This document shows positions 1 to 50,826 of a stretch of DNA of 64,000 bases, one piece after another. Source of the stretch: an uncultured Gemmatimonadales bacterium (GTDB taxonomy: Bacteria > Gemmatimonadota > Gemmatimonadetes > Gemmatimonadales > GWC2-71-9). Every line of letters starts with the position of its first letter. Positions within the stretch are counted from its first letter, which is position 1. The notes under the pieces are model-generated. The model worked only from the letters and a program-made list of their open reading frames with translations, did no database searches and was not told the origin of the DNA. Position numbers and translations under genes: made by a program. The DNA lies in assembly GCA_963842945.1 (NCBI GenBank), contig CAWJIM010000024.1, positions 96,001 through 160,000 on the forward strand. Reading direction: 5' to 3'.

Positions 1-1816
1 AGGCGATTGCCGCGCGGACACAGCAGTAATCGAACTCGACACCCTGGCCGATCCGGTTGGGTCCGCTCCCCAGAATGACTACGGTGCGCTCTCCGCTGGT
101 TTGCGCCTCATTCTCCTCGTCATAAGAGGAGTAGAGATAGGGGGTGGCCGAAGGAAACTCGCCGGCGCAGGTATCCACCGTCTTGTAAGCCGGCCGGATG
201 CCCAGCCGATGCCGCTCGGCCCGGACGGCGGACTCGGTAATGCCCCGTAGCTCCGCCAGTTGCCGGTCGGAAAATCCAAGCCGTTTCATTTTCCGCAGAA
301 GCGATCGTTGGTCCTCTTCTTTCCCTCCCCGCCTCCCCGCTTCCCCGCCTCCCCGCTTCCTCACCTCCCCGCTTCCCCGCCACTCGTCTTCCGCCTCCAG
401 CAGCTCAACCATCTGATAGAGGAACCAGGGATCAATCCCGGTGGTCTCCGCCAGTGCATCCACCGACACGCCGAGCTGGAGAGCGTACTTGAGCTGAAAG
501 ATCCGCTCCGGCGTCGGCGTGCGTACCCCGGCGAGCACCGCCTCGCGACTGGTGTCCTGCAGGCGATCGTCCGCCGGCGTGCTGCCCGCACTCCAGCCGA
601 TCCGGTCCGATTCCAGCCCGCGCAATCCCTTCTGAAAGGCCTCCTTGAAGGTGCGGCCAATGGCCATCACCTCGCCCACCGACTTCATCTGGGTCGTCAA
701 AGTGGGATCTGCCGCAGGGAACTTTTCGAAGGCAAACCGCGGAATCTTGACCACCACATAGTCGAGCACAGGCTCGAATGAGGCCGGCGTAGTCCTGGTG
801 ATGTCGTTGGGCAGCTCGTCCAGCCGGTATCCCACCGCCACTTTGGTCCCGATCCGCGCGATGGGAAAGCCGGTGGCCTTGGACGCGAGCGCGGAGGAGC
901 GAGAGACGCGGGGGTTCATCTCGATGACGAGCTGCTCCCCGGTGGTCGGACTTACCGCGAACTGAATGTTGCAGCCGCCCGCGGCCACGCCGATTTCGCG
1001 GATGATCTTGATGGCGGCATCGCGCATGGTCTGGTACTCGCGATCGGTGAGCGTCATGGCCGGCGCCACCGTGATCGAGTCGCCGGTGTGAACGCCCATC
1101 GGATCGAGATTTTCAATCGAGCAGACGATCACCACGTTGTCCGCCCCGTCCCGCATCACCTCCAGCTCGAATTCCTTCCAACCGATGATGCTGCGCTCCA
1201 CCAGCACGGAGCCCACCGGCGAGAGCTCCAGGCCCCGCCGAATCAGAGTCTCGAACTCCTCCCGGTTGTAAGCGATTCCTCCCCCCGAGCCACCCAGAGT
1301 GAAGGAGGGGCGGAGAATGGCCGGGTAGCCGGACACCTCAACGGCAGCCAGGGCCTCCTCCACGCTATGAACCGTGCGGCCTTCGGGAGTGGCGAGACCG
1401 ATACGCTTCATGGCCTGGGCAAATTCCTCCCGGTCCTCCGCCAGACGGATGGCCCGCTCGTTGGCCCCGATCAGCTCGACTCCGAACCGCTCCAGCGTGC
1501 CATTGCGCTGCAAGGCCATCGCCACATTCAACGCCGTTTGTCCTCCCATGGTCGGCAGCAGGGCCTGGGGGCGCTCGCGTTCGATGACCTTGGCCACCCA
1601 CTCCGGAGTGACTGGCTCGATATACGTGCGATCGGCCAACTCCGGATCGGTCATGATGGTAGCCGGATTCGAGTTGACCAGGACGACCCGGTATCCCTCT
1701 TCCTTGAGCGCCCGCACCGCTTGGGTACCGGAGTAGTCGAACTCGGCTCCCTGGCCGATGACGATCGGGCCCGAACCGATGAGCAGGATGGTCGAGAGAT
1801 CAGTGCGTTTGGGCAT
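1..1816 (-). CDS. carB: Carbamoyl-phosphate synthase large subunit (5' part; runs off the window)
   Basis: Manual translation from ATG at 1816: [30 protein letters not shown]...[22 protein letters not shown]...[19 protein letters not shown]. Absent from the ORF track because there is no stop in the window. Confidence 0.97.
325..380. repeat. Seven tandem 8-nt units (YTCCCCGC) inside carB, in frame
   Basis: ctccccgc ctccccgc ttccccgc ctccccgc ttcctcac ctccccgc ttccccgc; encodes [19 protein letters not shown]. Confidence 0.9.
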
Positions 1817-2750
1817 CCACCATGTCCCGCAGGGTCTGGTCCAACGTGATGGCGGGCGACCAGCCGGTTGCTTGCCGTAGCTTGGTTGCGTCACCTACGA
1901 GATGAGGGATGTCGCCGCTCCGGACCAGGTCGGAATCGGGAAACGGCTCCGCCTCTACCCCGATGATGTCCGCGATGCGCCGAAATAGCTGCTCCAGCGT
2001 AATCCCCTCACTGCGCGCGATGTTATAGGTCTCGCCGGGAATCCCGCTGCTGATCAGCGCCAGATAGGCTTCTACCACATCCCGAACATCGAGCAGGTCG
2101 CGCACCGGCTTCAGATTGCCGGTGGGCACTCGGCGGGGTCCGCCGGCCTTTACCGCCAGCAACCGGTCGATGAATGCCGGCACCACGTACGGAGGGCGTT
2201 GGCCCGGTCCCGTATGAGTAAAAGGGCGGGCGATAATCACCCGGAGCTGGGTCCGGCGCCAGGCCTCCAGCGCGGCGATCTCCGATGCGGCCTTACTGGC
2301 TGCGTAGGGCGACTGCGGCTGCACCGGGTGACTCTCAGCTCGAGGCAATGCCGGCCCTGCACCGTAGACCTCCGAGCTGGAGACGTGCAGGACGATGGGA
2401 TCCGACTGCCCTCGCTCCCGCGTCGAGATCAGAGCGTCCATGACCCGTGCGGTGCCCGCGGCGTTGATTACCCAGGCGCGTCCGGGATCCTCTCGAGCTT
2501 CCCGTACCGATGCCATGGCGGCCAGGTGAACGACGGCATCCTGAGGAGCGCTCAGGGCCTGGCGGACAGCGCGCTCGTCATCGAGCTCCAAGGGTACCGT
2601 TCGAACCCGATTACTCCAGGGTTCGCCGCCTGAGTTCTGCTGCCCCTGCACTGGCCGGCAGGCGGCGGTCACCTCGTGACCGGTCTCCACCAGCCGTCCT
2701 ACCAAACGCCGTCCGACAAAGCCGTCCGCGCCGGTTACCAGCACCCTCAT
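1800..2750 (-). CDS. NAD-dependent epimerase/dehydratase, Rmd-like (GDP-4-keto-6-deoxymannose reductase)
   Basis: TGADGFVG Rossmann motif, SSSEVYG, YAASK; directly downstream of gmd. Confidence 0.8.
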
Positions 2751-2763
2751 CCCTGGGAAGCCC

Positions 2764-3726
2764 TCATTTGCCGCGGAGCCGCTCCAGATCGGCGTCGACC
2801 ATCATCGCCACCAGTTCGGGAAATTGGACGTTTGGACTCCAACCCAGCTCGCGCTTGGCCTTGGTCGGGTCTGCCTGGAGCAGGTCGACCTCCGCCGGCC
2901 GCATGTATCGGGGATCGCTCTTCACATGCTTGCGCCAGTCGAGTCCTACGTGGCCGAAGGCGGCCTCCACCAAGTCGCGCACGCTGTGGGTCTGTCCGGT
3001 TCCGACCACATAATCCTGCGGAGTCGGCTGCTGCAGCATTCGCCACATCGCTTCCACGTAATCGCCGGCATAGCCCCAGTCTCGACGGGCGTCCAGGTTT
3101 CCCAGCAGGATCTCCTTGGCCAGGCCGAGCTTTATGCGGGCGACTCCGTCGGTGACCTTACGAGTGACGAACTCGATACCCCGCCGGGGCGATTCGTGGT
3201 TGAACAGAATGCCGCTGACCGCGTACAGGTTATACGATTCGCGGTAGTTGACCGTGATCCAGTGGCCATAAACCTTGGCAACACCATAGGGCGAGCGGGG
3301 ATAAAACGGCGTGGTTTCCCGCTGCGGCGTCTCGGTAACCCGGCCGAACATCTCCGATGAGCTCGCCTGGTAAAACCTGGCGCCGGGGTGGACCAGGCGA
3401 ACGGCCTCCAAGATTCGGGTGACGCCGAGTGCGGTGAATTCGCCGGTGAGGACCGGCTGAGTCCACGACGTGGGAACATAGGACTGGGCGGCCAGGTTGT
3501 AGACCTCGTCCGGCCGGGTCTCCTGCAGAACAACCGTGAGCGAGTGCTGGTCCAGCAGGTCCGCCGCCACAACCTGGATCCGTTCGAGCAGATGCTCGAT
3601 CCGTTCGTAGCTGTGGTGGCTGGTCCGTCGGACGACCCCGACCACCTCATATCCCTTGGACAGCAGCAGCTCCGCCAGATACGAGCCGTCCTGACCGGTG
3701 ACCCCGGTAATCAGTGCTCTAGGCAC
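2764..3726 (-). CDS. gmd: GDP-mannose 4,6-dehydratase
   Basis: [52 protein letters not shown]. Confidence 0.97.
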
Positions 3727-49376: not shown

Positions 49377-50075
49377 CTATTGCTGCTTGAATGAGACTGC
49401 CTGCTGGACCAACTGCCGGACCGGCCGCCCCTTGAACTTGGCCGGCTTGAAGACGCTCTTGAGAATGGCCTCCCGGGTCGGCTCGCCGAAGGCCGGGTGG
49501 CTGGTCTTCATGATCTTCAAGGAGTTGCCTTCCACGTGGCCGGTGGTGTCCACGATGAACTGCACCTCGACCCGTCCGGTTATTCCGGCGCTCGCCAGCA
49601 CCGGCGGATAGCGCGGCTGAGGCTGGGAGATGACCTGCACCGGGTCATCCAGCTGGGCCTCGAGGAACACTTCGCCGGTTACCGGACCGGTACCGCCCGC
49701 CACGCCGGTCCCGATGCCGCCCTCCACACCCTTACCGGTGAAGTCCCGGGGATCGAACGGCTTCTCGTTCAGATCGATCGGCGGAATGTCCTTGGGGATG
49801 TCGGTCGGCGCCACCACCGTCTGGAACCCCTTGGGCGGCGGGTTGGCCGCAACCACCACGTCCGGCGGGGGCTGGTCCGGCGGCGGCTTGGGGGGCTCCG
49901 GCGGCTTGAGGAACACCATGGTGGTGTCCACCGGACGGTTCTTCACGCTCTCGGCCACGCCCTGCGTCGCCTTGATGGCGCCGAAGATGATGAGGCCGTG
50001 GATCAGGAACGATAGAACCGTCTGTCCAACCGTGCGCTGATTCTTCTGCTTGGATTCGATCAGGTTCTCGAACAC
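49377..50075 (-). CDS. tonB: Energy transducer TonB
   Basis: TM with SxxxH, Pro-rich linker, YP...G.V.VQFIVDTTG...FKPA. Confidence 0.9.
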   Translation of the reverse strand: MFENLIESKQKNQRTVGQTVLSFLIHGLIIFGAIKATQGVAESVKNRPVDTTMVFLKPPEPPKPPPDQPPPDVVVAANPPPKGFQTVVAPTDIPKDIPPIDLNEKPFDPRDFTGKGVEGGIGTGVAGGTGPVTGEVFLEAQLDDPVQVISQPQPRYPPVLASAGITGRVEVQFIVDTTGHVEGNSLKIMKTSHPAFGEPTREAILKSVFKPAKFKGRPVRQLVQQAVSFKQQ

Positions 50076-50385
50076 GCAACTACCTCCAGGGGGAGGGTGA
50101 TCGTGCCCGGAAAGTAAGGCGCGCTGAAAACACCTGCTTTGCCCTCAGATGTCATTTCGATTACAGCCGCATTAGCAACTGCAACTGCTGCATCCGAAGG
50201 GCGGACACAACCCTACTCTGAGCTACAGAACTGCGGCGTGATCTGACTCACACGGCCTCGGCCTACGTTATCCCTCGCCCGGGTTTTGGCAAGCAACGTC
50301 CGCAGTACGGTGTCTGCGTAACTGCGGACCGCACTGGATGGTTCAGGATTGTCACGACAGGCAGAACCGGGTCGAGTCTTAGCCA

Positions 50386-50790
50386 ATGATTCACCACAGA
50401 GGCACAAAGGACACAGAGGGTCCGGCTCCCCAACTGACTCACGACATCGTGGGTGCAGCCATCGAGGTCCACCGGCAACTTGGACCAGGCCTCCTGGAAT
50501 CAGCATACGAAGCTTGTCTCAGTAGAGAATTGTCATTCCGGGGAATCGACCACAAGAGGCAGGTTTCACTGCCAGTGGAATACAGAGGTCTTCAAGTGGA
50601 ATGCGGCTACCGGCTGGATCTTGTAATCGCAAACGTGATCATCGAGGTCAAAGCAGTTCAAAAGGTACTTCCCATTCACCGTGCCCAGGTACTCACCTAT
50701 CTAAAGTTGACGGGTTACCGCCTTGGCTTGCTGATCAATTTCAATGTTGAAGTACTTCGCGCCGGTATCTACCGGATCATCAATGGATGA
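50386..50790 (+). CDS. GxxExxY protein (PD-(D/E)XK nuclease fold)
   Basis: [24 protein letters not shown]...[19 protein letters not shown]; visibly lower GC than its neighbours. Confidence 0.93.
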
Positions 50791-50826
50791 CGTTACCTCT
50801 GTGTCCTCTGTGCCTCTGTGGTGAAT
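50389..50826. mobile_element. Candidate mobile cassette: 31-bp inverted arms of 9-nt repeats enclosing the GxxExxY gene
   Basis: attcaccacagaggcacaaaggacacagagg (50389-50419) vs cctctgtgtcctctgtgcctctgtggtgaat (50796-50826): 30/31 complementary. Confidence 0.7.

Follow-up and report, generated by a model that had tools for sequence, protein, structure and literature searches.

Why should one layout of short tandem repeats, two arrays facing each other across a spacer, recur at about ten places of a single stretch of bacterial DNA when the repeated word differs from place to place? The question is raised by the 64,000-nt stretch analysed here (the window; G000:C24:96001-160000) of G000, the genome of an uncultured Gemmatimonadales bacterium, and we followed these inverted tandem-repeat elements through the whole genome and its relatives. 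In the filled form of the element, a small gene coding either for a four-helix bundle (4HB) protein of PF05635 or for a GxxExxY protein is bracketed by two inverted arrays, or arms, each of about four 7-9-nt units and with the purine-rich arm first. The G000 assembly (4.3 Mb, 65% G+C, 87% complete) carries frequent frameshifts, and its gene models were taken from a simple caller (80% coding density, some genes split by frameshifts), so that the counts of element context given below are approximate.

Inverted arrays and the small genes between them

Using a detector that is free of unit families, we identified a total of 137 paired elements in G000, with the purine-rich arm first in 133. Tandem arrays scoring at least 14 numbered 81, 115 and 27 at periods 7, 8 and 9, and 6, 1 and 1 at periods 6, 10 and 11. 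The arms are tandem arrays of non-palindromic units that recur genome-wide in six families, and the census of these families, for which the unit words were picked from G000 itself, gave 605 arms, or 579 once merged, where simulation gave 14 per Mb. The distances between partner arms were bimodal, either under about 150 nt or about 350-550 nt, and same-family neighbours within 700 nt formed 141 purine-first pairs (131 short and 10 long) against only 3 pyrimidine-first pairs. The modal arm had four units at each of the periods 7, 8 and 9 (134 of 276 arms, in counts that under-call the ends of degenerate arms). Gene-less pairs ranged from a few to about 45 per unit family, each family having at least one cognate gene in G000. 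In the window, the detector without prior knowledge of units found 6 strict pairs, but none in any of 40 order-5 Markov simulations, which confirms the elements noticed in a sequence-only reading of this DNA. The complement-only and reversed-only pairing controls yielded 25 and 7 pairs, respectively, and since the units resemble their own complements, the Markov null was used instead. The same reading had found no constant repeat and had taken the architecture, rather than the sequence, to be conserved. Its first statement is correct inside the window, but with six families genome-wide the sequence turned out to be conserved by family.

The short pairs lay mostly outside called genes (120 of 131), with 86 between tandem genes, 20 between convergent and 14 between divergent genes, and 11 in genes. 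Among the 83 binned elements between tandem genes, 53 began between -60 and +10 of the upstream stop codon, and in gaps with at least 60 nt remaining, 17 of 32 elements were at the stop against 7.9 expected. The placement at stop codons proposed earlier is therefore real as a preference, but the 11678 element lies between tRNA-Leu and smpB. Single arms near stops were purine-rich on the sense strand in 76 cases against 23. Such anchoring could reflect a host-maintained post-transcriptional system, in which the arms prolong terminators or lend stability to mRNA 3' ends and are bound by the small proteins as regulators, the genes having arms of their own for autoregulation. The strand bias of the single arms, seen also in the accessible text on Xanthomonas (PMC4692102), the terminator-like inner hairpins at 42390 and 47554, and the regulatory role proposed for TAACTGA repeats (in the accessible part of PMC4679880) agree with this explanation. 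We nevertheless consider it unlikely, because no G-U wobble asymmetry separates the upstream from the downstream arms (283:153 against 269:139, p 0.77), because the same sites rapidly gain and lose elements and change family, and because elements also sit in coding loops and the cargo inverts.

G000 carries three TIGR04256 (GxxExxY) and seven TIGR02436 (4HB/PF05635) matches, the latter all outside the window, and all ten of these cargo genes sit between inverted arms, degenerate arms having been judged by eye. The GxxExxY protein of the window matched PF13366 (E 9e-41) and TIGR04256 (E 1e-41). Its structure model reached pLDDT 90 (the single-sequence fold was poor, pLDDT 53), with Cas4 SSO0001 as the nearest fold (Z 7.7, rmsd 3.4, 98 aligned), tied with restriction-like folds; the Foldseek search gave no match at E 0.001 or better. 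The residues E38, D78, E87, K89, Q101 and Y105 were invariant in 71 sequences. By its modelled fold and its catalytic E, D and ExK residues, GxxExxY, entered as of function unknown in the accessible part of PMC3424549, is PD-(D/E)XK nuclease-like, with predicted activity. The four-helix proteins of G000 belong to PF05635, and their alignment is matched by XCC0516 (PDB 2GSC; E 6e-35), a structure of five four-helix bundles according to a title cited in PMC10053308. The sequence-only reading had expected small nucleases as cargo; small they are, but the commonest cargo is a protein without known catalytic site and not a nuclease. Its proposal that empty and filled forms make up one class was supported.

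The interiors of the 10 long same-family pairs and of the other cassettes held no transposase, only 4HB, GxxExxY or unrelated small open reading frames (ORFs). The arm pairs at C4:99991-100564 and C23:161577-162229 of G000 enclose small ORFs unlike both cargo families, possibly passenger cargo or chance. The single PF01797 (Y1 transposase) gene of G000 was without these flanking arms. GxxExxY was found in 8 of 72,556 plasmid records, and one 4HB query matched none of 50,697 phage records. Among the matches listed in a metagenome scan there was no close strain of the window cassette (best 77%); low cover over the GxxExxY gene in sequencing-run contigs of relatives proves nothing.

The G000 four-helix proteins also matched the bAvd profile weakly (E 1e-4, under cut-off), and Avd is a pentameric cofactor of reverse transcriptase (RT; accessible part of PMC6182149), while the Coxiella cassette discussed below is excised from RNA by RNase III (accessible part of PMC4990558). 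These points would fit a retro-element, with an Avd-like protein and an RT copying the cassettes through RNA as in diversity-generating retroelements (DGRs). We regard this as highly improbable: the search for RVT_1 (PF00078) gave no match in the 87% complete G000, the cargo fourfold sites carry A at 0.16 and T at 0.15 and thus no adenine bias, and the arms lack wobble asymmetry.

Protein clade tracks unit within one order

The evidence on 4HB comes from one order (31 genomes) and the literature. TIGR02436 matched 26 of the 31 genomes and 83 loci were taken, from which a tree of 70 proteins was built on 118 columns after exclusion of frameshifted and short rows, many forks of this tree being open. 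The GTGA-heptamer clade was supported at 100/98, the GCGGGGCA clade at 99/96, the nonamer clade at 95/70 and the superclade of octamers plus nonamers at 96/94, and unit labels changed 18 times on the tree against 33.5 after shuffling. Within this order, protein clade tracks unit.

Every unit family of the window has its cognate gene elsewhere in G000, for GCGGGGCA at C19:117.7 kb, for GGCGGTAA at C19:448 kb, for GGGAAGGAC at C2:102 kb, for GAGTCGG at C20:95 kb and for the GTGAGCG type on C22, at C19:147 kb and at C24:241 kb; the three GxxExxY loci of G000 are also counted among the cognate genes. In 8 of the 31 genomes, GCGGGG(C/A)A dimers numbered 17-129, and the cognate protein was found in 5 of them; the remaining 23 genomes had no more than one dimer each, and in none of them was that protein found. 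The highest numbers of the nonamer were seen in G002, G006, G000 and G008, which are the four genomes that have the cognate gene or its remnant; it was also present in G015 (24) and G017 (9), where the cognate gene was not found. For GxxExxY, 80 loci were compared, from at least 17 named phyla and with archaea among them; the inverted flanks matched in 61, against 9 of 80 with swapped partners, and the arms have a common outer end across phyla. The direct-repeat control was raised (16 of 80 at score 14), probably because of doubled elements.

These data bear on whether the elements could be a mutational by-product, arising from slippage and template switching at hairpins without any role of the proteins, the genes surviving in arms or having come by horizontal transfer. 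The spacers are unique, single arms in coding loops have different units and no enzyme has been shown, all of which would suit such an origin. It is made very unlikely by the fixed polarity (133 of 137), the small number of unit families per genome, the tracking of protein clade by unit, the presence of arms beside 61 of the 80 GxxExxY genes compared across phyla and the purifying selection on cargo described below.

Elements of the window and their orthologous sites

All ten loci claimed for the window are present in the sequence, and one more single arm, in the pdhC linker (28023-28054), had been missed. Folding z values against 60 shuffles were -4.3 to -12.3 for six window elements and weak for the 5508 (-2.2) and 28762 (-1.9) elements; the filled element was not folded. 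The sole match in the Rfam search was tRNA, and a terminator scan (9 sites against 6.7 expected) was uninformative.

The filled cassette has inverted arms of ACAC(A/G)GAGG type at 50389-50419 and 50796-50826 (31 nt, 97% complementary) around a GxxExxY gene of 134 aa (50386..50790, plus strand), coding for the predicted PD-(D/E)XK nuclease-like protein, whose N-terminus is encoded by the left arm. It lies between tonB and a histidine kinase gene (50906-51640), a site at which a cassette was found in 2 of 30 genus loci, one of them internally deleted; internally deleted cassettes were seen in L035 and L275. In L033, L034, L037, L038, L039 and L043, the same gap holds an extra tonB-like gene at various stages of decay.

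Of the empty elements, that of the GAGTC heptamer family (5510-5530/5537-5555) lies in the rpsK-rpoA gap, at the position of rpsD in other species; rpsD is present at this junction in 17 of 29 orthologues in the genus and absent from 12, of which 3 have arms. The alpha operon of G000 lacks rpsD here (window 5487-5565), and the only S4 match of G000 is on another contig (C19:271501-271764). The element of the GGGAAGGAC nonamer family between the tRNA-Leu 3' end and the smpB start (11682-11713/11768-11787) has two-arm counterparts in G011 and G046, single arms of a related nonamer in G035 and G036, and a one-unit remnant in G049. That of the GCGGGGCA octamer family (21728-21764/21815-21849) begins 3 nt past the stop of a metallo-beta-lactamase-fold gene, and at its site four relatives carry other octamers or a remnant. 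To the same family belong the single arm in the pdhC linker, of which most of five relatives have two-arm, in-frame versions, and the degenerate empty element in the pdhB-pdhC gap (28764-28797, right arm to about 28875), where G046, G035, G011 and G049 have heptamer elements of two other unit types. The element of the GxxExxY-type (CGCAGAT) family behind a sodium:solute symporter gene (about 43995-44030/44098-44130) is matched by the same family in G011, with an unrelated spacer, and in G035, and by a heptamer element in G046.

Two elements are located in variable loops of coding sequence. The single arm of the GCGGGG(C/A)A octamer family (326..380, minus strand) is in frame in a carB loop, with its purine-rich strand as the sense strand; this loop measured 33-69 aa in 27 of 30 orthologues, several with different octamers. 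The two-arm element of the GGCGGACG/GACGGTCG octamer family (39795-39827/39854-39888) is within a serine hydrolase gene (PF00144) that is frameshifted in the G000 assembly; the frame is kept in 12 of 13 relatives, and the unit changes in both arms together.

Two other elements, both empty, surround terminator-like hairpins. The element of the GT(G/A)AGCG heptamer family (42390-42418/42468-42511) provides the stop of an Fe-S scaffold gene, iscA, and both arms were found in 14 of 30 loci around a common inner hairpin that is specific to the locus, while the unit differs, again in both arms together. The second, of the GGGAAGGAC nonamer family (47556-47594/47664-47702), stands immediately past the exbD stop. 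Its apparent position in the exbD frame is caused by a frameshift peculiar to the G000 assembly: the orthologues stop just before the arm, and 4 nt at 47711 are absent in the contigs of 3 of 4 runs. The host hairpin of exbD is present in most of 30 loci, joined by nonamer elements in G000, G011, G046 and weakly G002, by a heptamer element with loss of half of the hairpin in G045, and by a GxxExxY-type element in G003, a single example from an unpublished genome.

The frameshifts of the assembly split pdhC, serine hydrolase, symporter, exbD and histidine kinase genes (window 27293-28747, 38596-40149, 40300-41972, 47603-48136 and 50906-52359). Contigs of relatives lack 1-4 nt at window 41096, 44816, 47711, 51659 and 51968, suggesting insertion errors in the G000 assembly. 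Window 37220-45173 groups genes for a GH3 glycosidase, the serine hydrolase of PF00144, a BadF-family kinase and two sodium:solute symporters, which may serve to recycle cell-wall sugars.

The fullest series of states was found outside the window, at the site between a mutM-like gene and secG that holds the GAGTC cassette of G000. The 30 loci included 7 filled in reverse and 3 in forward orientation, 2 empty with two arms, 3 remnants, 1 with none, and 2 cut off in an arm by the contig end; 11 of the 30 were non-syntenic. The sister genomes G060 and G011 have the cassette in opposite orientation. Fourfold sites of the cargo differed by 0.43-0.90 over all 45 pairs, and between G000, G011 and G060 by 0.81-0.90 against 0.21-0.42 in the host gene. 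At 56-77% amino acid identity despite saturated fourfold sites, the cargo is under purifying selection. One locus (L421) has a left-arm remnant and, between palindromes of the GTCATCC...CGAAGCGA class described below, a gene that we take to be GIY-YIG-like from its motif.

Among GxxExxY loci with common flanks, most pairs diverge along with their flanks and some jump, from which it follows that cassettes are mostly inherited and occasionally replaced; in L436/L439 the flanks are 91% and the cargo 62% alike, the unlike tract starting just past the upstream stop, spanning the gene and reaching the right arm. That cassette interiors hypermutate uniformly was ruled out, since most same-site pairs diverge with their flanks. 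The 89 4HB loci are spread over as many as 64 sites, an upper bound given the short flanks, and the element junctions in relatives are too diverged to resolve target-site duplication. The sites are polymorphic among relatives, with filled, empty, remnant and absent states, which supports the sequence-only reading on this point. They arise and disappear, pass to another unit family, flip in orientation, are filled anew with a divergent allele and wear down to single arms.

Spacers, known relatives and a possible mechanism

If the empty elements were non-autonomous transposons, mobilised in trans by the cognate product and copied and pasted in the manner of REPINs or of MITEs (transposable elements of the miniature, inverted-repeat kind), their spacers should be alike unless the copies are old and spacers decay fast. 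Only one duplicated pair was found among 114 spacers, with its flanks duplicated too; the other matches were nested palindromes of a second class or short chance matches. Spacers resembling one another or cassette flanks were those of the nonamer family (scores of 16.7 against about 13 and of 21.3 against 16-18) and, weakly, of B8. An identical element with identical flanks stands at C11:1530 and C21:195029 of G000, on two contigs, either a segmental duplicate or an assembly overlap. The second dispersed class, palindromes of GTCATCC...CGAAGCGA type (G000 C19:574332 and C19:696008; L148, L150, L042, L047, L060 and L421), nests in spacers and occupies the same post-stop sites. Copying and pasting is attractive for its match of architecture and cognate-gene logic to REPIN-RAYT (accessible part of 10.1101/2021.07.10.451892), the likeness of nonamer spacers to each other and to cassette flanks, the different families at one site in relatives, and the common outer end of GxxExxY arms across phyla. 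We judge it rather unlikely, given the single duplicated spacer pair, the sole Y1 transposase of G000 being without arms, and the iscA hairpin that stays locus-specific while the units differ. The earlier division into autonomous and non-autonomous forms is not supported as written, and the unique spacers argue against empty elements being clonal copies. Mirror copying of arms on a hairpin template, also considered, found no support in the A8 and C9 families.

REPIN-RAYT, as described in the accessible part of 10.1101/2021.07.10.451892, is the closest known system. It likewise consists of extragenic elements of about 100 bp, with two inverted arms and a variable spacer, about 100 per genome, in several families that each have a cognate low-copy chromosomal gene, and its genes are rare on plasmids, as is the cargo here. 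The statement that the present elements are unlike REPs thus has to be withdrawn for the layout, since two inverted arms, a variable spacer and a cognate gene in the same arms are REPIN/RAYT-like. The elements work alike, but three features of membership are lacking: the arms are tandem arrays of 7-9-mers and not REP palindromes, the cognate protein is PF05635 or PF13366/PD-(D/E)XK and not an HUH/Y1 transposase, and the cassettes occupy many sites and undergo inversion and replacement, unlike the stationary RAYTs.

MITEs and insertion sequences also have terminal inverted arms and come in empty and filled forms. The filled form here is without transposase, unlike theirs, and there are no clonal spacer families.

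ORF-bearing intervening sequences (IVSs) of 23S rRNA in Coxiella and Leptospira (S23p), in the accessible part of PMC4990558, share the PF05635 protein, the terminal inverted repeats and the decay of the ORF by deletion, and that of Coxiella has tandem GACAGAT heptamers at its 5' end. They differ in location, as no G000 cassette examined was in an rRNA gene (the rRNA genes of G000 themselves were not examined); the cassettes here lie between or in protein genes, many are gene-less, and window elements also lie by a tRNA gene. The 23S IVS looks like one insertion of this class.

The Xanthomonas GGGAATC arrays, the Nostoc heptamers and the TAACTGA repeats of Beggiatoaceae are likewise dispersed heptamer arrays, read in the accessible parts of PMC4692102 and PMC4679880 as G-quadruplex (G4) or regulatory motifs, without a link to cargo there; several G000 units are, by their sequence, not G4-forming. 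In X. campestris pv. campestris (Xcc), the accessible text of PMC4692102 describes 70 inverted GGGAATC pairs, with a preference for four units and the purine-rich strand close past stops, and states that the heptamer arrays are not linked to mobile elements. Its supplement 2 places a GGGAATC array between bccP and XCC0516, marked there as without inverted partner; we count it in favour of the reading set out below that a gene for a solved four-helix protein adjoins such an array. Avd of DGRs has a related pentameric four-helix-bundle fold (XCC0516, PDB 2GSC; accessible parts of PMC10053308 and PMC6182149), but neither RT, template nor variable region was found in G000 (87% complete). GTAG/CGTC palindromes (accessible part of PMC3733652) are a related description, and the accessible parts of PMC8700078 and 10.1101/2024.02.27.582315 contain nothing on arms. 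In the literature covered, which took in few subscription journals and no bioRxiv supplements, and leaving the Coxiella IVS aside, no paper ties the arms to PF05635 or to GxxExxY, and no account of the link between unit and protein was found. The suggestion of an undescribed system accordingly has to be narrowed: both the empty form, in Xanthomonas, and one filled form, the Coxiella IVS, have already been published, and it is for the unit-to-protein link that no printed account was found.

Our best reading, to which we give about an even chance, is that insertion, exchange and collapse are addressed by the protein and mediated by the arms, with a logic like that of REPIN/RAYT but without membership of that system. 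The small protein would bind units of its own family, with about one unit to each subunit in the case of the pentameric four-helix protein, the DNA being single-stranded or extruded, and binding would make the arms recombinogenic. Ring-shaped repeat-binding proteins provide the analogy, and a ring taking about one unit per subunit would fit the period-independent mode of four units. Either GxxExxY or nucleases of the host may do the cutting, and host repair the joining. New insertions, of arm pairs or of cassettes, would favour positions directly behind stop codons, at terminators or at older elements, hairpins being the preferred targets; the interior would then be exchanged or flipped via the arms and shrink by deletion. 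Empty elements would represent accumulated footprints, not clonal copies of one master element, and some, those inside genes, may be born empty. More broadly, and with less than even confidence, these may be transposase-free, self-spreading elements, whose small ring-forming (Avd-like) or nuclease-like proteins each read their own tandem 7-9-nt word, with about one unit to each subunit, and drive the writing, exchange and inversion of arm pairs past stop codons.

Several observations weigh against this protein-addressed insertion and exchange. Short spacers contain no remnants of cargo and, the nonamer family excepted, are unlike cassette interiors; the 110-nt spacer of an empty element at the mutM-like site matched the filled ones no better than shuffles did. 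A filled cassette was found at none of the window's empty sites in the rpoA, carB, iscA, exbD, hydrolase and five-genome locus sets. The arms of a pair match at the unit consensus and not variant by variant (A8 and C9 families). On the tree, one heptamer row falls within the octamer plus nonamer superclade, 24 of the 70 rows are unlabelled for want of an arm call, and the f2 4HB clade and several other rows have no detectable arms. Plain inverted flanks were noted at some of the f2-clade loci in which the detector found no tandem arms (L012, L013, L182, L185, L188, L191 and L201). No cognate gene appeared in 3 of the 8 genomes rich in GCGGGG(C/A)A (63-93% complete), and the genomes in which unit and protein co-occur form one subclade, so that their co-occurrence is not independent of host ancestry. 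Frameshifts interrupt two cargo genes of abundant families in the G000 assembly, PF05635 proteins have no known catalytic site, and binding, cleavage and movement are inferred.

The elements are real, widespread and partly in print as fragments, and the mechanism is directly testable. New here are six word-gene pairs coexisting in one genome, the full series of states, inversion included, at a single site, the episodic replacement of alleles and the uniqueness of the spacers. The finding joins three loose ends, namely the dispersed 7-9-nt tandem repeats, the very large PF05635 and PF13366 families without function, and the ORF-bearing rRNA intervening sequences. The clade-to-unit code offers a direct biochemical test with six protein-word pairs in one genome, and if the proteins are word-specific binders promoting cassette exchange, they would make a compact new class of tools and a force reshaping intergenic DNA and even the protein loops of core genes. 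If the proposed mechanism is true, a transposase-free class would account for the excess of 7-9-nt tandem repeats in many bacteria, with the ORF-bearing rRNA intervening sequences as a special case.

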